From Halothiobacillaceae bacterium UBA5861 (GTDB taxonomy: Bacteria; Pseudomonadota; Gammaproteobacteria; UBA5861), in contig DJFX01000047.1 of NCBI GenBank assembly GCA_002432635.1, forward strand, positions 320,766-384,765: DNA of 64,000 nt, written 5' to 3'. Below, piece by piece: positions 31,958 through 57,339 of the stretch. Below the pieces are notes generated by a model that had not been told where the DNA came from, did no database searches, and saw only the letters and a list, made by a program, of their open reading frames with translations. The position numbers and the translations under genes were made by a program. Within the stretch, counting starts at the first letter, position 1, and each line of letters starts with the position of its first letter.

Positions 31958-32617
31958 ATGTCTAACGAGGCAATGAAAAAAGCTGCCGCAGAATCTGCAA
32001 TCAGCTTTGTCACACCGGGTTCCGTGATTGGTGTAGGCACTGGCTCAACGACCAATTACTTTATCGAACTACTGGGCGACATACGCCAAGAAATAGAAGG
32101 CGCAGTAGCCAGCTCTGTTGAAACAGAAAAAAGGCTAAAAAACTCTGGCATTAATACTTTAGATCTTAACACCACGGGCACCTTACCACTTTATGTGGAC
32201 GGTGCTGATGAGGCCACCAAAGATAAACACTTGATCAAAGGTGGTGGTGGCGCTTTAACAAGAGAAAAGGTGATTGCAGCTGCAAGCTCCCAATTTATTT
32301 GCATCATAGATGAAACAAAGCTTGTAGGATATTTAGGAGCCTTTCCCTTGCCGGTCGAAGTCATCCCGATGGCGCGTAGCTATGTTGCACGAGAGCTCGT
32401 GAAGCTCGGTGGCCAACCACATTTCCGAAAAGGTTTTACAACAGATAATGGCAATATCATTCTCGATATCCACAACTTTGATGTACTAGACCCCGCAGCG
32501 ACTGAAAAGCAAATCAACCAAATAGCAGGAGTTGTAACAGTAGGTCTTTTTGCACAAAGACCAGCAGACATGTTACTTGTGGGACTTTCTAACGGCGAGG
32601 TAAAAAAATATACCTAG
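31958..32617 (+). CDS. rpiA: ribose-5-phosphate isomerase A
   Basis: GVGTGST and [11 protein letters not shown] motifs; start at ATG 8 nt after AAGGAG. Confidence 0.9.
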
Positions 32618-32696
32618 TCTCTCTACCCAGACATTTCCGGATAAACAGACTAGGCAACAATCAATGTTTTGCAAACAAATAAAGTAGAAAGGCGCT

Positions 32697-33089
32697 TTAT
32701 CGTTTAGAGAATTGTGTTGAACGACGTGCTTTATGCAAACCAACTTTCTTACGTTCAACTTTTCTTGCGTCTCGGGTTAATAAGCCAGCTTTTCTCAATT
32801 GCGGGCGAAGCTCCTCATTGTAATTGACAAGCGCTCTAGCAATACCGTGCCGTATCGCACCGGCTTGCCCACTATCGCCCCCTCCCACTACACTGACATA
32901 AACATCAAACTGGGATTGAGAATCAGTGACTTCAAGCGGTTGTCTAACAACCATTTTAGATGTTTCACGCCCAAAATAGTCATCCATCGACTGTTTATTG
33001 ATGGTGATTTCGCCGTTTCCTGGGCGTAAAAAAACACGAGCGCTTGATGTTTTGCGCCGGCCTGTCCCGTAATGTTGTTCCATGCTCAT
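32697..33089 (-). CDS. rpsI: 30S ribosomal protein S9
   Basis: 130 aa; [13 protein letters not shown] and C-terminal RRSTQFSKR. Confidence 0.95.
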
Positions 33090-33124
33090 AAGTTTTTTAA
33101 CTCGATTAATTTGACTTGTAACAC

Positions 33125-33553
33125 TTATATTTCAAGTGCTTGGGGCTGCTGTGCACTGTGTGTGTGAGAAGGACCTGAAAAAACTTTTAGCTTCTTGATC
33201 ATCGCCCTGCCAAGCGGATTCTTGGGCAACATACCTTTCACTGCCAGTTCAAAGACCCGCTGAGGGGACTTTTTCATCATGTCTTCAAAGTTAGCGGATT
33301 TCAGACTGCCAATATAACCCGTATGCCGGTGATACATTTTATTTTTAGCTTTGTCACCCGTTACAGTGATCTTATCTGCATTGACGATGATAATGTAATC
33401 GCCCGTATCTACATGCGGCGTATAAATAGGCTTGTGTTTACCACGCAAGCGTAAAGCAACTTCCGAGGCCAAGCGCCCCAAAGTTTTTCCTTCTGCATCA
33501 ATAACAAACCATTGACGCTTAACTTCAGCAGGCTTTGCACTAAAGGTTTTCAT
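33125..33553 (-). CDS. rplM: 50S ribosomal protein L13
   Basis: 142 aa; [21 protein letters not shown]-terminus. Confidence 0.95.
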
Positions 33554-33636
33554 TTTATGTCCCGTACCGAGTGATTAATCGCAGCTTTTGAGCTAAAAAG
33601 ACGCGAAATAATAGTTGATTTCAACAAGATTCGCAA

Positions 33637-35382
33637 CTAAAACTTTTGATTGACAAACCGTTTTTCAATCGAATAAGGGAAGACGTTCTCCTGGACACCT
33701 GAGTTTATAGCTGCTTGTTTTTCCTTCCAAAATTGAGGATCAAGAAGCTCTTTATGATACTTCATAAAGGGTTCTCGAACACGAGGATGACTACAGAAAA
33801 ACGCCTCGAACTCTTCCGGAAAAACATCATTGGGCTGCGCGGAATACCATTGACCACCTGACAACACAGCCTCACCAAAAGGTGACGCTGGAATTGTCCG
33901 GAAGCGGCACTCTGTGAGATAACACACTTCGTCATAATCATAAAAAACCACTCGTTTATTACGAGTCACGCCAAAATTTTTATACAACATATCACCAGGG
34001 AAGATGTTGGCAGCAACCATCTGCCGGATGGCATTGCCATAGTCCAATATAACCTGCTCAAGCTCCTGATCATTGGCGTGTGATATAAAAAGATTAAGCG
34101 GTTGCATACGCCTCTCAATATATAGGTGTTTGATGAGTATCAGATCTCCCTCTTGCTCAATACTGTTAGCACAGGTCGCAAATAATTCATCAAGAAGCTC
34201 TTGTGTCATTCGGTTACGAGGCAAGGCGACATCCGAGTATTCCATGGAGTCAGCCATGCGGCCAACCCTGTCATGCTGTTTAACCAATTGATACTTTTCG
34301 ATCACTGTCTGTCGGGTAATACCTTTTTTTTGGGGAGCAAATTTATCCTTAATCACTTTAAAAACATAAGGGTAAGACGGCAGCGTAAACACCATCATCA
34401 CCATACCTTTGATACCCGGCGCGATGATCAAGTCATCTTCTGAATGATTCAAGTGATAAAGAAAGTCTCTGTAAAATGCCGTTTTACTTTGCTTATGGAA
34501 ACCGATCGCCGCATAAACTTCAGCACTTGTTTTAGTGGGCAGCATGTTTTGCAAAAAGCTGACAGTCGCTGAAGGGACATCAGTTTGCGCCATAAAATAA
34601 GCACGTGAAAAACTAAAGATCTTCGAATGTTCTCTTTCATCTAAGAGAATGGTATCAACATAAATTTCCCCCCGTGAATTCTGCAGTAAAGGCACAATGA
34701 ACGGCGTCACTTCATGCCCATTCACAGCTTTGCCAATAATGTACGCGGCTTTATTTCGAAAAAAGAGGGAGTTCAGTATCGTAATATAGAAATTCAAGTT
34801 TGCATGATGAGGCCGAGCGGGCAAGTTTTGGCGTAGATAGTGAATAATACGTCTCACGTCTCGCCTCAAATCAAAAAACGAATTTTTCAAATTAAAGCTT
34901 TTTAAAATCGTCTCAATCGTAGCTCTGAAGCCATGTTTCGCGGGGTAATAATTATGGTAAACCATGTCATCGAAGTCCAAATATTCCGACGACATCGATG
35001 AACGTACAAAAATATTGTCGTTGTTATAGTAGCTGCGGTGAAATAGTTTGCAAAAGACGGTGTTGTAATAACTTTCAGCGAGCTGTGGTTGCTTGTGATT
35101 CAACAGCAAACGTACATAACGTAACTTGAGTTCTTGAAAATTTTCATCACTAAAATGTTGAATACGAAATTTTGTTTGTAGTATCTGAACAGTTTCATCA
35201 ACACGCTTGGTGTAGTAATAAATACGGTCACGGGAAGCCTGTTGCACGGCAGGCCAATCCGCCCGCTCAAAACGCGCTTGGGCGCCTGCTGTAATTTCGC
35301 TAAACAGTGTAAAGTGCTTTTCGAAACCATCCAGGATGGTTTTCGCAACAGCTTTAATCGTTTTTTTTGTTTCTCTACTCAC
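33637..35382 (-). CDS. aceK: isocitrate dehydrogenase kinase/phosphatase
   Basis: 581 aa; N-terminus LDGFEKHF...AQARFERADWPAVQQA matches E. coli AceK. Confidence 0.9.
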   Translation of the reverse strand: MSRETKKTIKAVAKTILDGFEKHFTLFSEITAGAQARFERADWPAVQQASRDRIYYYTKRVDETVQILQTKFRIQHFSDENFQELKLRYVRLLLNHKQPQLAESYYNTVFCKLFHRSYYNNDNIFVRSSMSSEYLDFDDMVYHNYYPAKHGFRATIETILKSFNLKNSFFDLRRDVRRIIHYLRQNLPARPHHANLNFYITILNSLFFRNKAAYIIGKAVNGHEVTPFIVPLLQNSRGEIYVDTILLDEREHSKIFSFSRAYFMAQTDVPSATVSFLQNMLPTKTSAEVYAAIGFHKQSKTAFYRDFLYHLNHSEDDLIIAPGIKGMVMMVFTLPSYPYVFKVIKDKFAPQKKGITRQTVIEKYQLVKQHDRVGRMADSMEYSDVALPRNRMTQELLDELFATCANSIEQEGDLILIKHLYIERRMQPLNLFISHANDQELEQVILDYGNAIRQMVAANIFPGDMLYKNFGVTRNKRVVFYDYDEVCYLTECRFRTIPASPFGEAVLSGGQWYSAQPNDVFPEEFEAFFCSHPRVREPFMKYHKELLDPQFWKEKQAAINSGVQENVFPYSIEKRFVNQKF

Positions 35383-35607
35383 TTAAATATCTGGGGCCGT
35401 AAATAGTGATGCGTCCGAAGCTCTAGCATGACTCAATGAAGGAAACCCACTCACGTCAAAAAGCGGATGAATGTTGTATTAAAGAACTACGTGAATACAA
35501 TAAAATTTTGTATCAATCCAGAGGAGCAAAACTCACTCCTCTGAATATATTCATCTATCCGTTAAATATAAGTAATTGATAGATTAAGGGCTCTACTCAA
35601 AAACCAA

Positions 35608-36861
35608 TCACATTGCTTGTATCTTAGCGATCAAGGCATCGGCAAACTTGCTTGTGGAAAGCTCAGTTGCATCTGGCATTTGCCGCGCAAAGTCATAGGT
35701 CACGGTTTTATCAGCAATCACTTGCGGATATACGTCATTAATGAGCTTAGCCGCTTCACGCCAACCCATGTAATCCAGCATCATCACGCCCGATAATAAA
35801 AGAGAGGATGGATTCACTTTATCTTGCCCGGCATATTTTGGCGCGGTGCCATGAGTAGCTTCAAAAACGGCTACATGATCGGCAATATTTGCACCAGGAG
35901 CAATACCCACGCCTCCAACCTCGGCCGCAACTGCATCTGACAGGTAGTCACCGTTCAGATTCATTGTCGCCAATACATCAAACTCGGCTGGCCGCAACTG
36001 CATAAGCTGAAAAGTAATGTCCGCAATGCGGTCATTGATCACAATTTTTCCTTCTGGGCGCTTGCCTTCATATTTTTCCCAAAGCTCATCTTCAGTGATA
36101 GTGACATCACCAAACTCTTCTTTGGCCACTTCGTAGCCCCAGTTCCGGAAAGCGCCTTCGGTGAACTTCATAATGTTACCTTTGTGCACCAGGGTCACCG
36201 TATCGCGCTCATTATCTATCGCGTATTGAATAGCTTTACGTACCAGGCGCTTAGTCCCAAAAGCACTGATCGGCTTAATGCCCAAACCGGCATCTTCAAA
36301 AAAATCAACACCCATTTCCTCACGTAAAAACTTGGCCAGCTTTTTGTTTTCAGGCGTACCAGCTTCATATTCAATCCCGCTATAAACATCTTCTGTGTTT
36401 TCACGGAAAATCACGACATCGACATCATCAGGCTTGCGCATGGGCGAGGGAACACCCGAATAATATTTCACTGGACGGACGCATGCATACAAATCCAACT
36501 CTTGACGCAATGCAACATTGAGCGATCGAAAGCCGCCACCTACAGGTGTAGTTAAGGGGCCTTTAATCGAAATAATCAGGTCTTTAAGGGCGGCCAAAGT
36601 TTCTTCAGGGAAATAATCCCCATCATAGATACCGGCTGACTTTTCACCCATGAATAGCTCAGCCCAGTAAATTTTCCGCTGACCACCATAAGCTTTTTCA
36701 ACGGCTGCATTCCAAACCCTAAGACTTGCATTGGTGATATCCGGGCCAATCCCATCCCCTTCCACATAACCAATAATAGGGTTATCAGGGACAACAAGCT
36801 TGCCGTTTTCTACGGTGACTTTTTTGCCACCTTCAGGGATTTTTACATGCTGGTAACTCAT
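35608..36861 (-). CDS. icd: NADP-dependent isocitrate dehydrogenase (E. coli type, AceK-regulated class)
   Basis: 417 aa; [39 protein letters not shown]-terminus, near-identical in pattern to E. coli Icd. Confidence 0.95.
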
Positions 36862-43714: not shown

Positions 43715-43837
43715 AGAACTCAGTGCTGAGTGTTCTCAATTACGTCATTATTAACGCTATGATGACCGCAAAGTCAGCCAGCGAATCCTGTACCTTACGT
43801 TATTGATCTTACGTGCCCTTATCTACGAGTGAGTGCC

Positions 43838-44977
43838 ATGCTACCCCAACAACCCCAAGCCCTTTCCGATACGTTCGTGCGGCCCGCAAGCTGGGCGGAT
43901 TTGGACGCCTTGGTCAAAATCGAACAGCGTTGTTTCGAAACCGATCGCCTCTCGCGGCGCAGTTTCCGCCACTTTCTCAAGCGCGGGAAAGGTACGCTTT
44001 TAGTCTACGATGCCGGTGACGGCCCCATCGGCTATGCCTTGGTCCATTTCCACGCCGGCACCGCGCTGGCGCGCCTGTATTCCTTCGCCGTGCTGCCCGA
44101 AGCCCAAGGCCGGGGCGTGGGTCGATTGCTGCTTGAGGCAGCGGAAGGCGCCTCCCGCGAACACGGTTGCCTGGCCATCCGGCTGGAGATCCGCCGGGAC
44201 AACGAGAAAGCCAAAGCGCTGTACTCAAGCGCCGGTTATCGCGACCTGGAGCAACTAGAGGACTACTACGAAGATCACGAAGACGCGGTGCGGATGGAAA
44301 AGTCGTTGGCGCCCCAGCCCGACCGCGGTGTCACCCGAGTGCCCTACTATGCCCAAACCCTGGAGTTCACCTGCGGGCCGGCCTCGCTCATGATGGCGAT
44401 GAAAAGCCTTAACCCGGATCTGCCGCTGAACCGCAAACTGGAACTGCAAATCTGGCGAGAAGCCACCACCATATTCATGACCTCGGGCCTGGGAGGCTGT
44501 GGCCCCGATGGTTTGGCGCTGGCTGCGCACCGTCGGGGGTACGAGGTCGAGTTGATCCTGAAAGACGAACAAGCCTTGTTTGTCGATTCGGTCCGTTCGG
44601 CCGAAAAGAAGGAGGTCATCGCCCAGGTGCATGAAGACTTCAAGGAACAGATTCTCTCCGCCGACATCACGGTGCGCTACGGTGCAGTGCGGGTGGACGA
44701 GTTGGAAATGGCGATTCGGGAGGGTGCCGTGCCGGTGGTCCTGATCAGCTCCTATCGGCTTTACGGCGAAAAAACCCCGCACTGGGTGGTGGTCACCGAT
44801 GTGGCCGATGGGATCGTCTATCTCCACGAGCCCTACGTCGATTACGAGGAAAACCGAACGCCCATGGACTGCATGAACGTGCCGATTTTGAGCGAAGAGT
44901 TCGAAGGCATGGCCCGTTACGGACGCAGCGGTCAACGCGCCGTGGTCATCCTGAAGCGGCACGGAACGCACGTATGA
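43838..44977 (+). CDS. fusion protein: RimI-like GNAT N-acetyltransferase + papain-like (peptidase C39-like) cysteine peptidase domain
   Basis: GNAT motif AQGRGVGRLLL; C-terminal domain with Cys motif TCGPASLMMAM and His motif HWVVVTDV typical of C39-type peptidases. Confidence 0.7.
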   Translation: MLPQQPQALSDTFVRPASWADLDALVKIEQRCFETDRLSRRSFRHFLKRGKGTLLVYDAGDGPIGYALVHFHAGTALARLYSFAVLPEAQGRGVGRLLLEAAEGASREHGCLAIRLEIRRDNEKAKALYSSAGYRDLEQLEDYYEDHEDAVRMEKSLAPQPDRGVTRVPYYAQTLEFTCGPASLMMAMKSLNPDLPLNRKLELQIWREATTIFMTSGLGGCGPDGLALAAHRRGYEVELILKDEQALFVDSVRSAEKKEVIAQVHEDFKEQILSADITVRYGAVRVDELEMAIREGAVPVVLISSYRLYGEKTPHWVVVTDVADGIVYLHEPYVDYEENRTPMDCMNVPILSEEFEGMARYGRSGQRAVVILKRHGTHV

Positions 44978-46452
44978 GTCGTCACGTTGTGGTCGTCGAC
45001 CAACCCGCCGAATGGCAAGATGACTTGCCCGAGAGCCTGTTGCTGAGCGCCCGCGACTATATCGCAGGTCAGGATTTCGGGACCAATCCCACAGTCAAAG
45101 TGATCAACCTCTGCCGCAGCTATCGCTATCTCGGCGTGGGCTACTACGTCTCGCTCCTGGCGGAGGCCCGCCGTCACCGGGTGATTCCCTCGGTGCGGAC
45201 CATGCTCGATCTATCGCGCAAAACCATCTACCAGTTGGTCACTGAAGAACTCGACGAGGACCTGGCGCGGCATCTAAAGCGGAACCAGGAAGACCAGATC
45301 GACTTCGTCATGTATTTCGGTTACACGCAGCAAGCCGATTTACAGCCGCTGGCCAATGTCCTGTTCGACCGCTTCCCGACGCCGATTCTCCACGTGCAAC
45401 TGCGTCGCAGCGGCAAATGGCAAATTCACAAGATCACGACCCGGGGACCGGCTGATATCACGGCGGATGAGCGCAGCACCCTCACCGACGCCCTCAACAG
45501 CTATCTGGGTAAACGGTGGCGCGCGCCCAAAGCCCGTGCCGTGTCCCGTTACGACCTGGCGATCCTTCACAACCCGGAGGATACCCTCTCGCCCTCCAAC
45601 CCCAAGGCGCTGCAATCGTTCATCCGCGCCGGAAAACGGCTGGGCGTGGACGTGGACCTGATTACCCGGCGGGACTATCCGCAAATCGCCGAGTGGGATG
45701 CCTTGTTCATCCGGGAGACCACCAGTATCAACCACCACACGTTCCGCTTCGCCAAACGGGCCGAAGCCGAAGGCATGGTGGTCATCGATGACCCCACGTC
45801 CATTCTTCGATGCACCAACAAAGTCTACTTGGCCGAGCTGCTCCGTACCCATCGGGTGGGCACACCCCGAACCGTCGTGTTACAGCGCGATCGGTCCACT
45901 GCGGAAATCGAAAAGCTGGGATATCCGGTGGTGCTGAAAATTCCGGACGGCGCGTTTTCGCTGGGTGTATACAAGGCCAATACGCCGGCGGAATTCGACG
46001 AGATCGCCACGCGTTTGTTCAAAAAATCGGACCTGATTTTGGCCCAGGAATTCCTCCGCAGCGAGTTCGACTGGCGAGTGGGGATTTTAGGCGGAAAACC
46101 GCTGTTCGCCTGCCAATATTTCATGTCACGCGGACACTGGCAGATCTACCAACACAAGGCTGATGGCCGGTTCGTCGAAGGTGAGGCCCGGACCCTGGCG
46201 GTGGAAGACGCACCGAAAGATGTCATTCAGACCGCGCTAAAAGCCGCCAATTTGATCGGTGACGGCCTCTATGGCGTCGACCTCAAGCAAACCGACCGGG
46301 GGGTGTTCGTCATTGAGGTCAACGACAACCCCAACCTGGACGTGGGTGTGGAAGATTTGGTGCTGAAGGACCGCTTGTACCAGATGGTGATCGAAGAATT
46401 CGTCCGCCGGCTGGACCGACAGCAGGAAAAAGCGGCTCGGCGTTTCACATAA
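44974..46452 (+). CDS. RimK-type ATP-grasp ligase with ~190 aa N-terminal extension (RimK-like ATP-grasp N-terminal, RLAN-like domain)
   Basis: C-terminal ATP-grasp motifs (YPVVLKIPDGAFSLGV, LAQEFL, VDLK..VIEVNDNP); ATGA start/stop overlap with the upstream gene. Confidence 0.75.
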   Translation: MSRHVVVVDQPAEWQDDLPESLLLSARDYIAGQDFGTNPTVKVINLCRSYRYLGVGYYVSLLAEARRHRVIPSVRTMLDLSRKTIYQLVTEELDEDLARHLKRNQEDQIDFVMYFGYTQQADLQPLANVLFDRFPTPILHVQLRRSGKWQIHKITTRGPADITADERSTLTDALNSYLGKRWRAPKARAVSRYDLAILHNPEDTLSPSNPKALQSFIRAGKRLGVDVDLITRRDYPQIAEWDALFIRETTSINHHTFRFAKRAEAEGMVVIDDPTSILRCTNKVYLAELLRTHRVGTPRTVVLQRDRSTAEIEKLGYPVVLKIPDGAFSLGVYKANTPAEFDEIATRLFKKSDLILAQEFLRSEFDWRVGILGGKPLFACQYFMSRGHWQIYQHKADGRFVEGEARTLAVEDAPKDVIQTALKAANLIGDGLYGVDLKQTDRGVFVIEVNDNPNLDVGVEDLVLKDRLYQMVIEEFVRRLDRQQEKAARRFT

Positions 46453-46818
46453 AATAAACGCCAGATACCATCTTCCTCATTCCCTATAGAAACATAATAG
46501 GAACATAGCCGACCATCACTCCGGCTAGTGATACCGCCCCTCATCGCGGTTGTTGGTTTCAATGGCATGCGCTCGCCACACCCTTCTCGATCATATTGGC
46601 TTTCATCATTCAAACCACCTCGAGCTATCATGCCTCACAAGGCCAGCCGACCAAATTAAGTGAACAATTTCATACATGAAGCTGTGCATTTTTTGCATAC
46701 CTTAAGTGCGAAACTAGCAGGAGACAACGGCACCGAAAGCTCTTTATGATCAGAACTCAAGGCATTTCCCATCGGCCACAACCTAAACACGATCCTGCAA
46801 ACCACGAGGGCTGAGTTC

Positions 46819-47946
46819 ATGACCACCAAAAAGCGATTATCTCGACGATCCTTCCTAAAAAACAGTGCCGGCGTTGCTGGTATGGTTGCATTCAGCAGCA
46901 GCTTGCTACCCAGACTGGCACAGGCAAAAGATTTAACCGTTGGTTTCATTTATGTGGGTGCAAAAGACGACTACGGCTATAACCAATCGCATGCAGAAGG
47001 TGCCGCTGCGATCAAAAAACTAGGCGGCATCACCGTCGTTGAAGAAGAGAATGTCCCCGAATCGGTTGAAGTGCTTAAAACCATGGAAAGCATGATCAAC
47101 TTTGATAGCGTTGACCTCTTGTTTCCAACCTCCTTTGGTTATTTTGATCCATTTGTTTTGCAGCTGGCGTCCAAATACAAAGACCTCCGGTTTGAACACT
47201 GTGGTGGCCTGTGGAGCCCTGAGCACCCAAAAAATGTCGGCTCTTATTTTGGTTACATTGGCATGGGGCAATATTTAAATGGCATCGCTGCAGGCCATGC
47301 CAGCAAGAGTAAGAAAATCGGTTTCGTTGCCGCAAAACCCATTCCTCAAGTGTTGTTAAACATCAACTCCTTCTTGCTCGGAGCCCGTTCAGTCGACCCC
47401 AGCATTACCTGCCAGGTCATTTTCACGGGAGAATGGTCACTCGCCGTCAAAGAAGCTGAAGCGACCAACGCCTTGATTGACCAGGGTGCAGACGTCATTA
47501 CCTGCCACGTTGATGGTCCTAAAGTGGTCATCGAAACAGCAGCAGGTCGCGGAGCTTATGTCTGTGGTTATCACGCTAACCAAAGCACCCTCGCACCAGA
47601 AAAATACCTGACAGGAGCTGAGTGGAACTGGGCAAATGTTTACACCAATATGGTTCAAACCGTCCAGGCCGGTAATACGATCCCTAACTTTCATCGTGGC
47701 GGACTGGCAGAGGGGTTTATCAAAATGAGTCCACTGGGTCCGGCTGTTTCCGACACGGCCAGGAAGCAATTTGAAGAAACCCAAGCGAAAATCCTTAAAG
47801 GAAACTATGCGGTCATTCAAGGTCCCATGAAAGACAACAAAGGCAACCTGATTGCCAAGGCAGGCGAATCATTTGTCGAAACAGATGTCGCACTGGAAAG
47901 CATGGACTATCTGGTAGAAGGCGTTATTGGTTCCACGTCTTCCTAA
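46819..47946 (+). CDS. BMP-family (basic membrane protein/PnrA-Med-like) ABC transporter substrate-binding protein with twin-arginine signal
   Basis: Tat motif SRRSFLK, signal ending AQA; BMP-family fold motifs. Confidence 0.8.
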   Translation: MTTKKRLSRRSFLKNSAGVAGMVAFSSSLLPRLAQAKDLTVGFIYVGAKDDYGYNQSHAEGAAAIKKLGGITVVEEENVPESVEVLKTMESMINFDSVDLLFPTSFGYFDPFVLQLASKYKDLRFEHCGGLWSPEHPKNVGSYFGYIGMGQYLNGIAAGHASKSKKIGFVAAKPIPQVLLNINSFLLGARSVDPSITCQVIFTGEWSLAVKEAEATNALIDQGADVITCHVDGPKVVIETAAGRGAYVCGYHANQSTLAPEKYLTGAEWNWANVYTNMVQTVQAGNTIPNFHRGGLAEGFIKMSPLGPAVSDTARKQFEETQAKILKGNYAVIQGPMKDNKGNLIAKAGESFVETDVALESMDYLVEGVIGSTSS

Positions 47947-47964
47947 CTGAACGAGCACGCCATA

Positions 47965-49065
47965 ATGCCGCTTGACAGTCCCCTGCTCCAGCACCTGGCT
48001 CGACGCTCAGAGGCGATCGCCATTCCTCTCATCGCACTGGCGGCAGGTTTTATTTTGTTTGCCCTCTTTTTACTGCTCCAGGGACAATCACCCGCGAACT
48101 ATTTTGCGCTTGTCTACAAGGCCGGTTTTGGTACAGCCTTTTCCTGGCAGAATACGCTCACACGGGCGTCCCCTCTCATCCTGGCAGCTTTGTGCGTCGC
48201 GCTCCCGGCGCGTCTAGGCCTGATTGTTATTGGTGGTGAGGGCGCGATTGTGCTTGGCGGTGTCGCAGCCAGTGCATTCGCCATGTTTTTTCCAGGCGCC
48301 ACAGGTCTTGTCGGGCTTTTATTGATGGGGGCCAGTGCTGCCGCAATGGGGGCACTCTGGATTGGGCTGATTGGTCTGATGCGATACGGGCGCGGCGTTA
48401 ACGAAACCATTTCCAGCCTCTTGATGGCCTACATTGGTGTGGCGCTCATGAATCATCTGGTCGAGGGCCCACTGCGAGATCCCAGCAGCTTGAATAAACC
48501 GGCGACGTACCCGCTGTCTGCTGAACAACGGTTGGGGAGCCTTCCAGGCCTGGATATCCACTGGGGCCTTGTAATCGGGATCGTCAGCTGTTTTCTGGTG
48601 TGGATTTTGATGACCTATACGCGCTGGGGATTCTCTGCACGCGTTGCCGGGGGTAATGTACGCGCTGCACAAGTCCAAGGCTTACCGGTTGGCATACTGA
48701 TCGTTGGCTTTACGGCTTTAGGTGGCGCCTTTGCTGGCCTTGCTGGCATGGTAGAAGTGGCTGCCGTACACGGCACTGCAAATGCTTCGTTGGCGTCAGG
48801 CTACGGTTACACCGGAATACTGGTTGCCTTTCTGGCGCGACACAATCCACTGGTTATTATCCCTGTTGCCGTTCTACTCGGTGGGTTCGAGGCCGCTAAT
48901 GGCCTTGTGCAACGGCGCATGGATTTACCCGATGCGACTGTTCTGGTTCTACAGGGTTTTGTCTTTATTTCCATCCTCATCAGCGAAACACTCTACGGCC
49001 GTATTCGCCTGTTTAACCCGGAACATTGGAAAATAACACCGGCAACCATGAGAGAAAACTCATGA
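47965..49065 (+). CDS. ABC transporter permease (BMP-type, YufP-like)
   Basis: 366 aa polytopic membrane protein directly downstream of the BMP binding protein. Confidence 0.8.
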   Translation: MPLDSPLLQHLARRSEAIAIPLIALAAGFILFALFLLLQGQSPANYFALVYKAGFGTAFSWQNTLTRASPLILAALCVALPARLGLIVIGGEGAIVLGGVAASAFAMFFPGATGLVGLLLMGASAAAMGALWIGLIGLMRYGRGVNETISSLLMAYIGVALMNHLVEGPLRDPSSLNKPATYPLSAEQRLGSLPGLDIHWGLVIGIVSCFLVWILMTYTRWGFSARVAGGNVRAAQVQGLPVGILIVGFTALGGAFAGLAGMVEVAAVHGTANASLASGYGYTGILVAFLARHNPLVIIPVAVLLGGFEAANGLVQRRMDLPDATVLVLQGFVFISILISETLYGRIRLFNPEHWKITPATMRENS

Positions 49066-49985
49066 CAACTGACATTGGACTCTGGGGCGTGCCTCTCGCA
49101 ATTATCGGCGGCGCCATTCGTGTTTCAACACCGTTTTTATTCGTGAGCCTGGGCGAGTGCTTAACTGAACGTTCAGGCCGTATTAATCTTGGATTAGAAG
49201 GCACACTCGTCTTTGGCGCCATGTCTGGCTATGCTACCGCTTACCTCACCGGGTCACCCTGGCTGGGCGTGCTTGCGGCGGCTATCTGTGGCTTTGGCTT
49301 TGGGCTGGTACATGGGTGGATATGCGCTCTTCCACGGGTTAATGATATCGCCGTTGGAATAGCTCTGATGCTATTTGGCATGGGCCTGGCTTTTTTCTTT
49401 GGCAAACCCTTTATTCAACCTGTCGCGCCAGACCTGCCAACTATTAACCTGGGGGCCTGGTCAGACATCCCCCAAATCCAGGCTGCGTTAAAAATCAATG
49501 TGTTATTTATTATTGGTATTGTACTGGCCGTCACCATGGCCTGGATGTTTCGCAACACTCAACTGGGCCTGACCATTCGAGTCGTGGGCGATAGCGATGC
49601 TGCAGCTCGTGCCATGGGTTTAAAAACGAATAGGATACGTTTTCTCAGCACAGCGTGTGGAGGGGCTTTAGCAGGTATCGGCGGTGCCTACCTGTCTCTT
49701 TACTACCCCGGCAGCTGGAACGAAGGCTTATCTTCCGGCCAGGGCTTAATGGCCGTAGCACTGGTGATCTTTGCTCGCTGGAACCCACTGAACTGTTTCT
49801 GGGCGGCCCTTTTATTCGGTGGTGCAGGTGCGTTAGGCCCGGCACTCCAGTCCATTGGCATCACCCAGGGGTATTATCTTTTTTATGCCGCACCTTACGT
49901 TTTGACCTTGGCGTTATTAATTGCAACCAGCTCACCTTCGAAAGCACTCACCGGCGCTCCCGGTGCGCTGAGCATTACCCGTTAG
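49062..49985 (+). CDS. ABC transporter permease (BMP-type, YufQ-like)
   Basis: Internal start MTTDIGLWG overlapping the upstream stop (ATGA); polytopic. Confidence 0.8.
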   Translation: MTTDIGLWGVPLAIIGGAIRVSTPFLFVSLGECLTERSGRINLGLEGTLVFGAMSGYATAYLTGSPWLGVLAAAICGFGFGLVHGWICALPRVNDIAVGIALMLFGMGLAFFFGKPFIQPVAPDLPTINLGAWSDIPQIQAALKINVLFIIGIVLAVTMAWMFRNTQLGLTIRVVGDSDAAARAMGLKTNRIRFLSTACGGALAGIGGAYLSLYYPGSWNEGLSSGQGLMAVALVIFARWNPLNCFWAALLFGGAGALGPALQSIGITQGYYLFYAAPYVLTLALLIATSSPSKALTGAPGALSITR

Positions 49986-49994
49986 GAGCTTTTT

Positions 49995-50672
49995 ATGACA
50001 ACGATTAACGCGGATCCTTACCATTGGCCTTACAACGGTGACTTAAAACCCGAAAATACCGCTCTGATCATAATCGATATGCAAACCGATTTTTGCGGGT
50101 TGGGCGGTTATGTTGACAGCATGGGGTACGATCTTGAATTAACCCGAGCCCCAATCGAACCCATCCAATCGGTGCTGAGCCACATGCGGGCCAAGGGCTA
50201 TCACATCTTACATACCCGGGAAGGGCACCGGCCGGACTTATCGGATTTGCCTGACAACAAGCGCTGGCGTTCACAGCAGGTGGGTATCGGCATTGGCGAT
50301 GCTGGCCCCTGCGGAAAAGTACTCGTGAGGGGCGAGCCCGGCTGGGAGATCATCAATGAACTCCGCCCGGAACCCGGTGAAGTGATTATCGACAAGCCAG
50401 GCAAAGGTAGCTTCTATGCCACAGACTTGGAACTGATCTTACACACTCGCGGCATTCAGAACATTATCCTCACAGGCATCACAACAGACGTTTGTGTTCA
50501 CACCACCATGCGCGAAGCCAATGACCGGGGATTTGAATGCCTTATTCTTGAGGACTGTTGTGGCGCAACCGATCAGGGCAACCATCACGCGGCCATCCAC
50601 ATGATCAAAATGCAAGGCGGTGTTTTTGGCAGTGTGTCCAACAGCCAGTCCATACTCAATGAGCTGCCCTGA
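49995..50672 (+). CDS. isochorismatase-family (cysteine) hydrolase, RutB/BiuH/CSHase-like amidohydrolase
   Basis: Catalytic Asp region [11 protein letters not shown] and Cys motif [20 protein letters not shown]. Confidence 0.8.
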
Positions 50673-50679
50673 GCCACCC

Positions 50680-52230
50680 ATGACGCATATCGAAAAGAAG
50701 ACCCACAGCGCGATTGGCATTGAAGTCATTGGAATGACAATGCGCTTTGGGAGCTTCACCGCTTTGAACCAGGTGTCCCTGAAAATTCCCCCCGGTCACT
50801 TCCATGCGCTGCTGGGAGAGAATGGCGCAGGAAAATCAACTCTGGTGAAGTGCATGATGGGTTTTTATCAGGCCACCGAGGGAGAAATCATCGTCAACGG
50901 CCGCCAAGCCGAAATCCTCGCACCGCAAGATGCGCATGCATTGGGCCTTGGTATGGTCTACCAGCACTTTACCCTGGCACCGTCCCTCACCGCCGCTGAA
51001 AATCTGCTGGTTAGCCGGCGTGATGCTTCTACCGTTATCCATTGGTCACAGGAAAAACAAAAACTGACCGATTTCTTGGGCACGATGCCCTTTACTGTTC
51101 CCCTGGAACGGAAGGTTTACGCACTCTCAGCCGGCGAAAAACAAAAACTGGAAATACTCAAACAACTGTATCTCGGCTGCCATTTTTTAATTTTGGACGA
51201 ACCCACCTCTGTGCTCACATTATCGGAAGCCGACGAAGTGCTGGGCCTGATACGCCAGTTATGCCAAGCAGGCCAAATTACGGCCTTGATGATTTCCCAC
51301 AAGTTTCGCGAAGTCACCACCTATGCCGACGAGGTGACCATCTTGCGCAAAGGGGAACGGGTTGGGCAGGGCCAAACGTCTCAACTCTCAGTTGCTGAAA
51401 TGGCAACCATGATGGTGGGTAAACCCGTTACCCAAAACATTTATGAGCGCCAGCCACACACACCTGTCCCCGTGCTCTCACTGGAAAATATCTGTTGTGA
51501 AGATCGCAGTGGCCTGAAAAGCATAGAAATCGACTCACTCAACGTGTGTGCAGGCGAAATTGTCGGCGTTGCAGGCGTCTCTGGCAATGGCCAGGTCGAG
51601 TTGATGGAGGTGCTCACGGGTCAGCGCTCACTGCAAGCCGGTGGTATTTATGTCCAGGGTGAACCTTTTCGAGCCACACGCGAGGAAGCCTTTAAACACA
51701 ATGTACGTTTTCTCCCAGAGGAACCGCTACATAATGCCTGCGTTTCGGGCATGTCCGTCAAAGAAAATATTGCGCTCCGGGATTTCGACAGAGATCCCCA
51801 GCAAAAACGCTTATTCTGGCTTAAAAAGCGCTTGATGCGCTCACGATCAGCCCAGCTGGTGACGGATTTCAATGTTAAAACAACCTCACTGGACACACCC
51901 ATTGAGTCTCTCTCTGGGGGCAATATACAGCGCGCCGTTCTCGCCCGGGAACTCACAGGCAAAGTTGACTTGCTCATCATCTCCAACCCCTGTTTCGGCT
52001 TGGACTTTTCAGCCGTTGCGGATATCCGTGACCGCATTATGCAGGCCCGCAACGCGGGTGCCGCCGTTTTACTCATCAGCGAAGACCTCGATGAAATTAT
52101 GGAGTTATCAGATCGGGTACTGGTGATGTCTGAAGGCCAAATCACTTATGAAAGCCCGATTGAACAGACAACGCTTGAACAGATTGGTCAGCACATGGCC
52201 GGCCACAGGACAACCGCATGGATAAACTAA
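50680..52230 (+). CDS. ABC transporter ATP-binding protein with duplicated NBD (BMP/sugar-type double ATPase)
   Basis: First Walker [10 protein letters not shown] and second NBD with LSGGNIQR signature; start at MTHIEKK after the upstream stop. Confidence 0.85.
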
Positions 52231-52889
52231 CGATTCAGGCCAGGCCTCACGCCTTTAGCTACCAGCCGAACACATCTGCGCTGATCGTCATTGACATGCA
52301 ACGTGACTTTATTGACTCCGGTGGATTTGGAGAGAGCCTGGGGAATGATGTTTCCCGGCTGCAAAAAATCATTCCCGCAGTGAAACGGCTGATCAACGGT
52401 TTCCGGGGCGTTGGCATCACGATCATCCACACCCGGGAATGCCATTTACCAGACTTATCTGACTGCCCGGACGCAAAACGTTACCGGGGTAACCCCGGTC
52501 TTCGAATCGGCGACCCAGGCCCCATGGGACGCTTGCTGGTAAAAGGTGAACCGGGCGTTGAAATTATCCCAGCACTTGCACCCATCCCCGGTGAAAAAGT
52601 CATCGACAAACCTGGAAAAGGGGCTTTCTACCACACGGACCTGCAAGAGTTTTTACAAGACCAACACATCGAGACCTTGTTTTTTGCCGGGGTTACCACC
52701 GAAGTGTGTGTTCAATCAACCATGCGGGAGGCTAATGACCGGGGCTACTTCTGTCTGTTAGCGCGTGATGCAACAGAAAGCTACTTTGACGTCTTCAAAC
52801 AAACAACCATCGACATGATTGAAGCCCAAGGCGCCATTGTGGGATGGACCGCCACAGTCGATGACATTTTGACTTCTTTTCATGCTTAA
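52218..52889 (+). CDS. isochorismatase-family hydrolase, paralog of 49995-50672
   Basis: [11 protein letters not shown] and [20 protein letters not shown]; same Cys-PGK(G) spacing as the paralog. Confidence 0.8.
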
Positions 52890-53238
52890 GCCAGGTATTT
52901 TTCAAACACTACTCAGCGAGGGCTGGAAACAGCACCGTTTCGAACCCTTTCACGAAGGTGTACAAATCTGCACTTTGTGGGCAGAAGAAACCACGCTGGC
53001 GCTCCTCAAGTACGAGCCGGGGGCCTCAGTCCCCCGCCACCGCCATACCGGGACTGAGCTGATTCTCGTGCTAGAAGGCTCACAAAGCGACGAACATGCG
53101 ACTTATCCGAAAGGGAGTGTCATCCTCAACCCGGCGGGTTCAGAACACTCGGTTTGGTCTGAGCAGGGTTGTGTTATTTTAATTCACTGGGAAAAGCCGG
53201 TCGAGTTCATCAACGCTTGTGATGAAACATTTAAATGA
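52882..53238 (+). CDS. cupin-domain protein (ChrR-like cupin)
   Basis: 118 aa; His-containing cupin motifs [16 protein letters not shown] and GSEHSV. Confidence 0.5.
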
Positions 53239-53369: not shown

Positions 53370-54491
53370 CTAGCCCGACCGGGTAGGTAAAACCACGACA
53401 CCGCCACCTTCACAGGAAATCTCATCATCCTGAGTGACAGCTCGAATTTCGACGGCAACCATGAACTTTCCATCTTTTTCATATTTATCGGTCACTTGTC
53501 CGCTGATAGTAAGCAGATCACCCACAACATTATGCCTGCGAATACGGGCATTTAGCTTGTATAGCCAGCCATCATCACCCATCCAGTTGGTTAAAATGTG
53601 TGTCATCCAGGAAATACGCTCTGGGCCGTAGTCGTAAGGTGCAGGTGCACCAACGCGAGTCGCGAGCGCATCTTCCCAGTGAACTCGCTCAGGGACATCC
53701 GGAATATTTTGAGCATTTGGAATGGATGCACTCGGTGCCTTTTTCAGCAGTTTGTAGAGTAACTTGTGTGAACGAATAAAAATTCCTCCCCAACCCTGTA
53801 CAAAAGCAAGAAAGCCCGTCACGGTCATCGGACCCTTTAGAATGGATGGAATTGCATCGCCAATTTTGACATCTTCCCAATAAAGTGTCTCACCACCACG
53901 GACATATTCGTTGATGTACTGCTCCGAAATCGCTTCAATTTCTGCGTCGGTATAGCGCTTATCCAGCTTGATATCTTCGTATTTCTTACCTTTTTCACGG
54001 GCAGAATCTCGCTCTGTACGAAAAGCCCACTGTTCGCATTCCGCGACTTTTTCATCATCTTGGTTAAAGAAATCGAAGTGAACAATCTGTTGAATGGACT
54101 TCCCGGAAAAGCGCGTTTTATGTTCGACTAAATCTTTCAGGTACGATTCTGTACGTATTTTTGTGCCAACTGGCATCGGTAAGTGCCAGGTCCAATTACC
54201 ACCGGCATACATTGCATGAATACCCGGCAACCCGTGGTAGGCATTCATTGGTGTCATCGCATGTAAAATACTGGGCGGTGCAATATTATTTTTATATTTG
54301 GATTGTTTACCGTATTCGCTGTCCAACCAGAGCGGGTTATCATCACCAATTCCGTGTGCGTAGTGACGAATCGCGTCTTCGTTACACTCGGTGAGCCACA
54401 CCACCGTATTTTCCATTTTTTTGCCAATGGTTTTACGCAACTCTTCGACCGCTTGATCGGAGATTGCCGGGAATCTACTCTCTGTGGACAT
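53370..54491 (-). CDS. double hotdog-fold MaoC-type acyl-CoA hydratase/dehydratase (itaconyl-/mesaconyl-CoA hydratase-like architecture)
   Basis: 373 aa with two hotdog halves; C-terminal MaoC signature region. Confidence 0.6.
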   Translation of the reverse strand: MSTESRFPAISDQAVEELRKTIGKKMENTVVWLTECNEDAIRHYAHGIGDDNPLWLDSEYGKQSKYKNNIAPPSILHAMTPMNAYHGLPGIHAMYAGGNWTWHLPMPVGTKIRTESYLKDLVEHKTRFSGKSIQQIVHFDFFNQDDEKVAECEQWAFRTERDSAREKGKKYEDIKLDKRYTDAEIEAISEQYINEYVRGGETLYWEDVKIGDAIPSILKGPMTVTGFLAFVQGWGGIFIRSHKLLYKLLKKAPSASIPNAQNIPDVPERVHWEDALATRVGAPAPYDYGPERISWMTHILTNWMGDDGWLYKLNARIRRHNVVGDLLTISGQVTDKYEKDGKFMVAVEIRAVTQDDEISCEGGGVVVLPTRSG

Positions 54492-54507
54492 TGTCTTTCC
54501 TCGTTAA

Positions 54508-56982
54508 TTAATAAATTATTTTCTTCTTTTTTAATTGTTCAATCGTTGATTGTTCCAAGCCAAGAATCTTGTCATAAACATAATCATCGTGCTCCCCTAG
54601 CAGAGGGGCCGCACTATAGATATCCAATGGAATCTTGCTCATTTGCCAGGGTATTCGGTACAGGTCTATCTCACCAAGCAAGGAATGTTTAGCCGTTTGG
54701 CGGAGCTTGCGACTGGCAAAGTGCGGGTGCTTGAATTGCTCTTCGATGGACAGTAACGGGGTTGCAGGTACACCTTCATCGCTCAACCTCTCTGCAATGT
54801 CATCCCGGTTTTGCTCGGCTGTCCATGCGTTTAAAGAATGCTCAATGCGGACTTCGTGTGCACGCCGGTCCTCCAACGTGTCAATATCATGCCACTCAAC
54901 CGGCTCCCCCATTATTTTTTTCAGTTGCCTCCATTGCTGATCGCTTTCCACGCTGATTGCAACCCACTGGTCTCGTCCGGCACATTGAAAATGACCGTGA
55001 GGTGTGAATAGCGGATGTGGGTTGATGGTTTTTTGAGTGCGCTTTGGATTATCTCCATTCCATTGAGTATCAATCATTGCCTCGGCAATGGCAGAAGCAC
55101 CGACTTCAAGCTGGGAGAAATCAATGTATTGTCCCTGCTGACTTTTCCGCCGGTGATACAATGCCGCCAGGATTGCATAAAGTGCGTGAATCCCTGCACT
55201 CATATCATTCAGCCCAAAATTGAGCATGCCAACAGGCGCTTCCCCCGGATACGCGAGCAAGGACTCAAGCCCCGAATACCCTGATAACACCGGTGCATAA
55301 CCTTTCAAGTCAGCGATGGGGCCGGACTGCCCAGCGCTTGATAGTGAAATCATCACCAGATCGGGACGTACTGTCTTTAATGAAGTGTAATCCAGCCCCA
55401 GTTTTGCAAGCGTACCCGGCGTGAAGTTTTCCAGCACAACATCGCTCTTGGCAACCAGGTTACGCAGCAGCTCTGCACCTTCTTCTGTTTTGATGTTAAG
55501 GCGAATGCTGAGTTTGTGGCGATTGACTTCATGGTAGAAAGGACCAAGTTCAATTGATTTTCCAGGTATTCGAAACAGCTCACCATCAAAGGTAGGGGCT
55601 CCTCTCAATCGGGCATTATCAAGCCGTTTCGTATGTTCAACTTTGATGACTTCCGCACCCAGGTCTGCGAGAAAGCCGGCCGCAAATGGGCCAGCCCAAA
55701 CCCATCCCAAGTCCAGTACGCGAAGCCCTTCGAGGGGGCGTTTGATGCTTTGCCTATGCGGAGTTTCCATGTTTGCTCGTTGGGTGAACTCTGAGCGGAT
55801 ACTGACGTTATGCTCCCCAAGTCGAGGGGGTGGTTTTAATGGCGGAACCGAACCACCGCTAAATTGAAATGGCATTTTGGGGATCTTCACTGGACCTCGC
55901 TCTACCATATCAAGTGTTCTAAAAAACTGGCGATGGGCAAATTGTGCTTCTTCAAGCGCTTGCCCAACGGTATTGACTGGCGCCATTGGAAAGCCCCACT
56001 GCCGAGCGAGTTTAAATAATTCCTGTTGTGTATAACGGGCAATCAATGGGCTGATTAATGCGTCAACTTCAGCGGAATAGTCCCGCCCCATCGCCACTTG
56101 GTCACGGTAGCGAGGGTTGTCCGCCCAATCCGGATTACCCATCGCCTTTAAAAACTGATCCCAGTCACGGGTAGACCTCGCAATCATCACAACCATGCCA
56201 TCTTTGCACGGGTAAAGCCCAAGTGGATAAGGCCCCATCGTGCCAAATGCCTGGTGCCCAGCTCGTTGCCACTGCAGGCCGTAGTAAATCATCAAGCTCG
56301 ACTGGATACCGGCATAGTTGGCCAAAATATCAGCCACTGATATGTCAATGAACTGGCCGCAACCGGTATCATCCCGCTGGATAAGTGCTGCCATTACAGC
56401 GGCGGCGGCATGCACGCCTCCTTGTGTATCCGCAAGAGTCAGTGGTAATTGCAGTGGTGCTTTATCGGGTGAACCAATGGCCCATGATGTCGATGACAGT
56501 GCGCTGGCATGTATTGCTGAGCCCAATCGGCCAGCGTAAAGTCCGGCCCAACCAAAATTACTGATTGCACAATAAATCAGGTGTGGATGCGTTTGTTTCA
56601 GGCTGTCGTAATCAAGACCGGCTTGCATCAACGCACTTTTATCCAACGCAGTTAAAAAAATATCACTGGATTTTAGGCGCTCAGCAAGCCACAGTTGGTC
56701 GCTTCTATCATCAAAATTAATGGTGATGGACTCTTTTCCGGTATCAAGAAAAGTGTGCAAAGCACTTTGTTCAATCTCTGGCTTGTCCTTTGGAAAGGGG
56801 CCATAGTGGCGGGCCAGCTTGCCATTAAAGGGTTCAAGCGAGATGACCCGGGCACCCATTTCAACAAGCAAGTGCGAGGCGTAGGGGGCTGAAGCAAGCC
56901 CACCCACTTCAATAACCGTGATTTCAGATAAGGTTTTATAGATATTTTTCATAGCATTAGAAATCAAAATCCCAAAAACCAT
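54508..56982 (-). CDS. tandem-fused family III CoA-transferase (two complete CaiB/BaiF/Frc-like domains in one 824 aa chain)
   Basis: Two repeats each beginning with a Rossmann-like L(x)VIEVGG / LRVLDLGW motif and each retaining a catalytic-Asp loop (ADTQGG; NDMSAG). Confidence 0.8.
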   Translation of the reverse strand: MVFGILISNAMKNIYKTLSEITVIEVGGLASAPYASHLLVEMGARVISLEPFNGKLARHYGPFPKDKPEIEQSALHTFLDTGKESITINFDDRSDQLWLAERLKSSDIFLTALDKSALMQAGLDYDSLKQTHPHLIYCAISNFGWAGLYAGRLGSAIHASALSSTSWAIGSPDKAPLQLPLTLADTQGGVHAAAAVMAALIQRDDTGCGQFIDISVADILANYAGIQSSLMIYYGLQWQRAGHQAFGTMGPYPLGLYPCKDGMVVMIARSTRDWDQFLKAMGNPDWADNPRYRDQVAMGRDYSAEVDALISPLIARYTQQELFKLARQWGFPMAPVNTVGQALEEAQFAHRQFFRTLDMVERGPVKIPKMPFQFSGGSVPPLKPPPRLGEHNVSIRSEFTQRANMETPHRQSIKRPLEGLRVLDLGWVWAGPFAAGFLADLGAEVIKVEHTKRLDNARLRGAPTFDGELFRIPGKSIELGPFYHEVNRHKLSIRLNIKTEEGAELLRNLVAKSDVVLENFTPGTLAKLGLDYTSLKTVRPDLVMISLSSAGQSGPIADLKGYAPVLSGYSGLESLLAYPGEAPVGMLNFGLNDMSAGIHALYAILAALYHRRKSQQGQYIDFSQLEVGASAIAEAMIDTQWNGDNPKRTQKTINPHPLFTPHGHFQCAGRDQWVAISVESDQQWRQLKKIMGEPVEWHDIDTLEDRRAHEVRIEHSLNAWTAEQNRDDIAERLSDEGVPATPLLSIEEQFKHPHFASRKLRQTAKHSLLGEIDLYRIPWQMSKIPLDIYSAAPLLGEHDDYVYDKILGLEQSTIEQLKKKKIIY

Positions 56983-57211: not shown

Positions 57212-57331
57212 TCGAAAGGGAGTGTCATCCTCAACCCGGCGGGTTCAGAACATTCGGTTTGGCCTGAGCAGGGTTGTGTTATTTTGATTCACTGGGAAAA
57301 GCCGGTCGCATTCATCAACACTTTTGATGAA
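57212..57331 (+). pseudogene. diverged duplicate of the 3' end of the cupin gene (52882-53238)
   Basis: ~92% nucleotide identity by eye to 53108-53226. Confidence 0.65.
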
Positions 57332-57339
57332 GCAACGCC

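Follow-up and report, generated by a model that had tools for sequence, protein, structure and literature searches.

A run of seven genes at positions 46819-53238 of a 64,000-nucleotide stretch from Halothiobacillaceae bacterium UBA5861 (contig DJFX01000047.1, positions 320,766 to 384,765; the whole stretch is referred to here as the window) is a new example of the published triuret/biuret gene cluster, a route that was characterized in 2018-2021 and in which a small cupin is the only component left unexplained. The genes encode an ATP-binding cassette (ABC) importer, two isochorismatase-family cysteine hydrolases, assigned here as biuret amidohydrolase (BiuH) and as an orthologue of the triuret hydrolase TrtA, and the cupin. 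The operon probably imports triuret and biuret, condensates of urea that are rich in nitrogen, and scavenges their nitrogen, a reading to which a probability of roughly 0.8 is given. Its source is an uncultured marine gammaproteobacterium found in beach-sand and Atlantic metagenomes. The seven open reading frames (ORFs), all on one strand according to ORF listing and translation, and the region that precedes them are the following:

46819..47946, + strand: substrate-binding protein of the BMP family, AtzT-like subgroup, exported through the twin-arginine translocation (Tat) pathway (PF02608, 1.2e-40; TIGR01409)
47965..49065, + strand: ABC permease subunit 1 (PF02653, 1.8e-24)
49062..49985, + strand: ABC permease subunit 2 (PF02653, 2.5e-35)
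49995..50672, + strand: biuret amidohydrolase BiuH, hydrolase 1 (NF050097, 417.8 bits; 6AZO match)
50680..52230, + strand: ABC ATPase with two nucleotide-binding domains (double-NBD), between the two hydrolase genes (two ABC_tran domains, Pfam)
52218..52889, + strand: triuret hydrolase TrtA orthologue, hydrolase 2 (best PDB matches 6XIX, 6XJ4 and 6XJE)
52882..53238, + strand: single-domain metal-site cupin of 118 aa (PF12973 Cupin_7, 4.2e-18)
46453..46818, + strand: upstream intergenic region, presumed promoter and operator (conserved in the sister-genome locus L009)

At the level of the enzymes, hydrolase 1 exceeds the cut-off of 370 bits set for the NCBIfam BiuH equivalog (NF050097, EC 3.5.1.84) with a score of 417.8, and it can be aligned over its entire length with the crystallized BiuH of Rhizobium leguminosarum (6AZO; E=3.7e-121, 77% identity). 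It carries the catalytic triad D28/K134/C167. The TrtA consensus is reported to differ from that of BiuH at F35, N41, A134, E160, Y187 and I205, the triad of TrtA being D24/K129/C162 and its key glutamine Gln202 (PMC7948467). At these six discriminating positions hydrolase 1 reads Y39, Y45, S139, D165, T192 and V210, all of the BiuH type, and the key glutamine is present in both hydrolases of the window. By family score and specificity residues, hydrolase 1 is a biuret amidohydrolase, which by analogy with the orthologues described in the literature would convert biuret to allophanate and ammonia.

Hydrolase 2 finds its best PDB matches in 6XIX, 6XJ4 and 6XJE (E=6.7e-84, versus 2.8e-58 for the best BiuH), which are structures of the triuret hydrolase TrtA of Herbaspirillum sp. 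BH-1 reported by Tassoulas, Elias and Wackett (PMC7948467). It is 61% identical to this enzyme over 207 residues without gaps, versus 46% to the BiuH of the window, and on the BiuH model NF050097 it stays under the cut-off with 243 bits. The triad corresponds to D26/K131/C164, the six discriminating positions are all TrtA-type (F37, N43, A136, E162, Y189 and I207, in addition to Q204), and every substrate-contact and second-shell residue of TrtA is identical in hydrolase 2. The clustering with biuH that is a trait of TrtA is also found here, as biuH lies 1.5 kb upstream of trtA in the same operon. The same two residue signatures separate the genes of related loci, in which the triad and five of the positions (F35, N41, E160, Q202 and I205) were inspected: D-K-C/F-N-E-Q-I was the reading in each of the 86 TrtA-type genes and D-K-C/Y-Y-D-Q-V in each of the 50 BiuH-type genes. 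Hydrolase 2 is accordingly placed by its residues as a triuret hydrolase TrtA orthologue, and its predicted reaction, borrowed from the characterized orthologue, is the conversion of triuret to 1-carboxybiuret and ammonia. The Herbaspirillum enzyme catalyzes this reaction with a kcat/KM of 6e5 M-1 s-1 and a discrimination of about 1e4-fold against biuret; the carboxybiuret product loses CO2 to form biuret, spontaneously in vitro (half-life of about 20 min) or under TrtB catalysis, BiuH converts biuret to allophanate, and AtzF completes the pathway (PMC7948467).

The mechanism proposed for the window combines the observed family assignments, specificity residues and conserved synteny with enzyme reactions carried over by analogy. 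The Tat-exported AtzT-like binding protein would capture a planar ureide in the periplasm, and the two permeases, together with the fused double ATPase, would import it. Once in the cytoplasm, TrtA would cleave a terminal amide of triuret to produce 1-carboxybiuret and ammonia, and the carboxybiuret would lose CO2 to yield biuret, either spontaneously or, speculatively, with the assistance of the cupin. BiuH would subsequently transform biuret into allophanate and ammonia. Finally, allophanate would be processed by an enzyme encoded outside the window (an allophanate hydrolase or a urea amidolyase), or it would decay to urea.

Several points weigh against this interpretation. TrtA has been assayed from Herbaspirillum only, and hydrolase 2 shares just the 61% identity mentioned above with that enzyme. 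The enzyme and ligand assignments of the window proteins derive from sequence and from analogy with their homologues; in the case of the binding protein, the ligand is deduced from genomic context, and AtzT, its closest solved relative, binds guanine best and cyanuric acid poorly. The encoded pathway stops at allophanate, because no allophanate hydrolase or urease is present in the 64-kb window, which is also devoid of TrtB and of a regulator adjacent to the operon. To our knowledge, there is no established natural source of triuret in seawater or beach sand. A different view is that hydrolase 2 and the transporter act on another acyl-urea or ureide (formylurea, guanylurea, carboxybiuret or an oxidized purine fragment), triuret being a laboratory surrogate. 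The marine habitat of the organism, where fertilizer triuret is unlikely, would fit with this idea, as would the trace activity of the Herbaspirillum enzyme on formylurea and the addition of a nitrilase-family "formamidase" in many sister clusters. It is nevertheless unlikely, given that TrtA is described as ultraspecific, with no other substrate exceeding 0.5% of the rate on triuret (PMC7948467), that hydrolase 2 retains the complete set of substrate-contact and second-shell residues, and that the formamidase is absent from the window.

The uptake of triuret and biuret is proposed to depend on an importer of the BMP/PnrA family, made up of a Bmp binding protein, two BPD_transp_2 permeases and a fused double-NBD ATPase. 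Permease 1 is 53-70% identical to its counterparts in syntenic clusters, and the ATPase displays full-length similarity to sugar/BMP-type fused ATPases and occupies the same position in the Rhizobium and metagenomic clusters. The closest solved homologue of the binding protein is AtzT (6PI5, E=1.6e-61), which belongs to the atzRSTUVW transporter of Pseudomonas sp. ADP (6PI5/6PI6) and shares with the window protein the two-lobe cluster-B fold and the Tat signal, detected here by the NCBIfam model TIGR01409 (23.4 bits versus a cut-off of 16.7). The original prediction, made from the DNA sequence before any database search, had described the Tat-exported binding protein as cofactor- or fold-dependent. 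A cofactor does not follow from Tat export, as AtzT is Tat-targeted and yet cofactor-free (PMC6834077); the Tat signal is a family trait and gives no evidence of a cofactor.

AtzT holds guanine or 2-hydroxyatrazine sandwiched between Tyr45 and Trp194, and its affinity is tightest for guanine (0.11 uM) and only 340 uM for cyanuric acid (PMC6834077). When its contact residues were mapped onto the window protein through a HMMER alignment, the aromatic sandwich was found to be kept (Tyr45/Trp194 correspond to Y54/W206), as were Ser97/Phe98 (S105/F106) and Asn169 (N181), whereas Glu165, Asn218, Asn220 and Thr139 were changed to Gln177, His230, Asp232 and Gln151, respectively. A ligand different from that of AtzT is to be expected because Glu165, Asn218 and Asn220 are replaced by Gln, His and Asp, and the pocket suggests a planar molecule with a hydrogen-bond pattern unlike that of guanine. 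The resulting Y/W-S-F-Q-Q-N-W-H-D pocket is preserved in 35 binding proteins linked to such clusters, even at identities as low as 48%, and its His and Asp are invariant. With respect to a nucleoside or nucleobase ligand, every NCBIfam equivalog scores far under its cut-off, while the aromatic sandwich is retained. We infer that the ligand is triuret and/or biuret; the pocket is consistent with this assignment without proving it.

These residues also bear on the idea of an ordinary PnrA-type nucleoside or nucleobase importer that lies by coincidence next to two RutB-like pyrimidine-catabolic amidases. It would account for the Bmp Pfam family, for the "nucleoside transporter" labels employed in the literature (PMC12625717) and for the weak RutB matches of 110-118 bits. 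However, these scores fall far under the RutB cut-off of 378, and RutB is the best PDB match of neither hydrolase. Moreover, the pocket departs from that of guanine-binding AtzT at three polar positions, H230 and D232 are invariant in the cluster family, and the linkage between transporter and hydrolases is conserved across bacterial classes. A chance neighborhood of this kind is the least credible of the alternatives considered and can be given hardly any weight.

Triuret and biuret scavenging by this set of genes is also consistent with its recurrence in other organisms. The original prediction had regarded the order of the genes as atypical; on the contrary, the interleaved order is the norm for the cluster family. 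It runs as binding protein, permease, permease, optional CN-hydrolase, BiuH, optional AtzD, ATPase and TrtA, and, in a sample of 80 metagenomic TrtA loci, it holds in every contig long enough to judge, save for a handful of variants. About 29 metagenomic contigs are long enough for the full order. The arrangement is not due to chance, since it recurs in sister genomes, in Rhizobium plasmids and in about 40 metagenomic contigs. A single-protein scan of genome contigs with query-specific peptides retrieved mostly distant isochorismatase-family genes and left around seven useful loci. The Rhizobium plasmids (L007 and L008) start with a divergent GntR gene followed by a BMP binding protein, two permeases and a formamidase, and continue with an isochorismatase-family hydrolase, atzD, the ATPase, another isochorismatase-family hydrolase and a cupin. 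Their hydrolases are 78% and 68% identical to the BiuH and the TrtA of the window, respectively, and the order from binding protein to cupin is shared, including the 8-nt overlap of the cupin with the preceding trtA. The same backbone appears in Hoeflea, Xenophilus, Roseobacter-group contigs, Pseudomonas sp. R2.Fl, and gammaproteobacterial and marine metagenome-assembled genomes (MAGs).

Published work had already described trtA and biuH in the company of an ABC cassette and a GntR regulator (PMC7948467, Fig. S1), as well as their proximity to bmpA-nupABC in nitrifiers (PMC12625717, Fig. 6). Like the Herbaspirillum cluster (PMC7948467), the window contains a paired TrtA and BiuH with the same specificity residues next to the same BMP-type ABC cassette; unlike it, the window lacks a GntR/LysR regulator, formamidase, AtzD, AtzF and TrtB. 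The hosts are also different, with an uncultured marine gammaproteobacterium on one side and plant-associated alpha- or betaproteobacteria on the other. Contigs from ammonia-oxidizing bacteria and comammox Nitrospira (trtA-biuH-atzF-bmpA-nupABC; PMC12625717) resemble the window in the BMP ABC transporter beside trtA/biuH and, in some cases, in the lack of trtB, while they differ in carrying atzF and, in comammox, also allFGHK, with no cupin mentioned. The original prediction of an uncharacterized uptake-and-deamidation route is only partially upheld: an uptake system does appear to feed two paralogous cysteine amidohydrolases acting on a ureide, but the route is a known one, represented by a BiuH equivalog and a TrtA orthologue in a published co-location.

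A search of the 64-kb window with tblastn and domain scans returned no AtzD, CN-hydrolase (formamidase), TrtB, AtzF or urease, and the operon is a minimal version of the cluster family. This composition is relevant to the proposal that the genes form a cyanuric acid or s-triazine mineralization module, as in Rhizobium leguminosarum and Pseudomonas sp. ADP, with a transporter that imports cyanuric acid. The presence of atzD between biuH and the ATPase gene in the Rhizobium plasmid clusters, which have the same backbone, and the origin of the closest solved relative of the binding protein in an atrazine plasmid would favor such a module. Nonetheless, it is very improbable for the window, because the ring cannot be opened without AtzD, whose homologues are absent from the whole window and whose gene is found in 2 of the 80 metagenomic loci.

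Other variants of the cluster family deserve mention as separate observations. The formamidase, a CN_hydrolase of the nitrilase superfamily with 338 aa, is located between permease 2 and biuH (L007 7662-8678, L089 5124-6140, L092 5121-6137 and about 15 metagenomic loci), and no explanation of its substrate in the pathway was found in the literature on the cluster. Clusters of the Cellvibrio type (L013 10702-12381 and L014 10782-12347) have no ABC importer; a porin precedes trtA, and a polytopic membrane protein of 520-560 aa, with about 10-12 hydrophobic segments and no Pfam match, is encoded between trtA and biuH-cupin. Transport of the same ureides may fall to this protein, as a so far undescribed secondary transporter. 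In a Rhodobacterales-type cluster (L176 5883-7110), an insertion sequence element (rve transposase) truncates the ATPase gene and leaves trtA-cupin beside a set of urea carboxylase, DUF1989 and allophanate hydrolase genes. Lastly, a Lachnospiraceae MAG (L015 8177-10633) contains three tandem isochorismatase-family genes, two of them BiuH-like (55% and 70%) followed by a TrtA-like one (55%), in the vicinity of a BMP ABC system that is only distantly related and follows the conventional order ATPase, permease, permease and binding protein. The pathway may thus reach gut Firmicutes.

Regarding the organization of the operon, the gene order and the overlaps listed in the original prediction were reproduced. 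The overlaps can be read directly from the sequence (ATGA at 49062-49065, 13 nt at 52218-52230 and 8 nt at 52882-52889), and elsewhere the genes are separated by 7-18 nt. The Pfam/NCBIfam content is Bmp, two BPD_transp_2, two Isochorismatase, two ABC_tran, Cupin_7 and a TAT signal, so that the Tat-type export proposed for the binding protein is also sustained. The Asp/Lys/Cys sets foreseen in both hydrolases are present on alignment, and the shortlist of RutB, biuret hydrolase and N-carbamoylsarcosine amidase (CSHase) offered for them included the right family, biuret hydrolase. Gene calls of identical public contigs coincide with the start of permease 2 at 49062 and place that of the ATPase at 50680, for which an alternative longer GTG start exists at 50620. 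The seven genes are probably co-transcribed as one operon, as all the junctions are overlaps or gaps of at most 18 nt.

The upstream region (46453-46818) and the corresponding stretch of the sister-genome locus L009 share 91% identity, with the proximal ~170 bp almost invariant. An Rfam scan for riboswitches or other RNA elements gave zero matches in the whole window, this region included. No site with the sigma-54 consensus was detected in 46453-46818, the window-wide matches being below chance, and sigma-70-like matches in the same region are at chance level. No convincing internal promoter or terminator was found, in a scan that was uninformative given that promoter-like counts were near the shuffled expectation and terminator-like counts about 2 standard deviations above it. 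Domain scans of the 64-kb window revealed no regulator gene adjacent to the operon.

The remaining component of the cluster is the cupin. Its 3His-1Glu metal site (H53, H55, E59 and H89) is invariant, as are Q68, D70, N83 and C97, and its AlphaFold2 (AF2) model reaches a predicted local distance difference test (pLDDT) score of 92.5. Its function could not be read from the fold, as Foldseek matches in PDB were generic (the ChrR C-terminal domain, Dke1/DAD dioxygenases, KdgF and DddK). In every context with sufficient flanking sequence the cupin gene is beside a TrtA-like or BiuH-like gene, always within trtA/biuH clusters, and four architectures are observed: ATPase-TrtA-cupin, ATPase-cupin-TrtA, TrtA-X-BiuH-cupin and BiuH-TrtA-cupin. 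The cupin may serve the pathway as an accessory enzyme, and it is predicted to be translationally coupled to trtA. Neither a published role for it nor a link between a cupin and the triuret/biuret pathway was found in the literature.

Three known identities were considered for this protein and rejected. Equivalence to TrtB (AtzH-like, PF11533) was discarded, as the cupin matches cupin families only. TrtB, as exemplified by the Xenophilus gene, has an AtzH-like/DUF4440 (NTF2-like) fold with no homology to the Cupin_7 beta-barrel of the cupin, and its AtzH-like assignment also appears in the tree of the nitrifier study (PMC12625717). An allophanate hydrolase AtzF was likewise dismissed, since the protein has 118 aa and no amidase domain, versus an Amidase signature plus AH_C in about 600 aa. 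The database label "allophanate hydrolase" given to the cupin looks like a misannotation because genuine AtzF genes (Amidase plus AH_C) lie directly 3' of the cupin in other genomes. Finally, a ChrR anti-sigma-E factor was rejected on the basis of a score of 47.4 bits versus 124.5, with only the C-terminal cupin part aligning, and no gene for a sigma factor, the extracytoplasmic function (ECF) partner expected of ChrR, was found adjacent to the cupin.

Despite the lack of homology, TrtB and the cupin have a similar size (~120-126 aa) and share the operon slot directly after trtA. In the 80 metagenomic TrtA loci, 23 contain the cupin, 23 a TrtB-type gene and none both, one or the other being present in 46. 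Of the 23 cupin loci, about 20 have the small gene immediately 3' of trtA, as do 9 of the 23 with TrtB, and both types are often beside atzF. This mutual exclusion has a nominal Fisher p=1.5e-5, a value that overstates the evidence because the pattern is explained by a single evolutionary switch, the only one recovered by Fitch parsimony on a neighbor-joining (NJ) tree of TrtA; as a sign of functional analogy it is suggestive. It is possible, albeit doubtful, that the cupin stands in for TrtB, without being its homologue, in the decarboxylation of 1-carboxybiuret to biuret and represents an unrecognized enzyme of ureide catabolism. A role of the cupin in the processing of allophanate is less likely than this decarboxylation.

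The 3' end of the cupin gene is also the site of a sequence duplication. About 125 bp (53112-53238) are repeated at 57213-57335 on the + strand, just before the end of a UgpC-like gene, with ~87% amino acid and ~90% nucleotide identity. The two copies flank a block with a MaoC-dehydratase and a double CoA-transferase (53370-56982) that is absent from L009, so that the arrangement resembles a scar left by insertion or recombination where the operon ends. At the upstream border, a GNAT/DUF3335 and RimK-like ATP-grasp gene pair (43829-46452) has ~60% G+C versus ~50% in the rest of the window and persists only as short remnants in L009, implying an indel. A further deviation in composition is found at 32001-36000 (G+C of 0.42-0.44 versus ~0.50), a stretch that takes in the aceK region together with its upstream DNA. 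The operon itself is located 3' of lptD-surA-pdxA. A mobile element was considered and rejected, given that the cluster occupies this lptD-surA-pdxA position in the sister genome L009 (~90% nucleotide identity) as well, and the operon is not obviously mobile.

At the level of annotation, a coherent pathway assignment takes the place of the generic "cysteine hydrolase" label on two proteins and of the names "allophanate hydrolase" or "cupin domain-containing protein" on a third, the cupin. The cupin emerges as a conserved, translationally coupled partner of TrtA that may fill the carboxybiuret step where TrtB is lacking, and the cluster-specific pocket of the binding protein gives a clear starting point for finding out which ureide is transported. 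The range of triuret and biuret scavenging now takes in uncultured marine Gammaproteobacteria and, judging by the cupin homologues, many marine Rhodobacterales. This marine occurrence fits with the idea that triuret also arises naturally, for instance by oxidative damage of purines, besides its origin in fertilizer.

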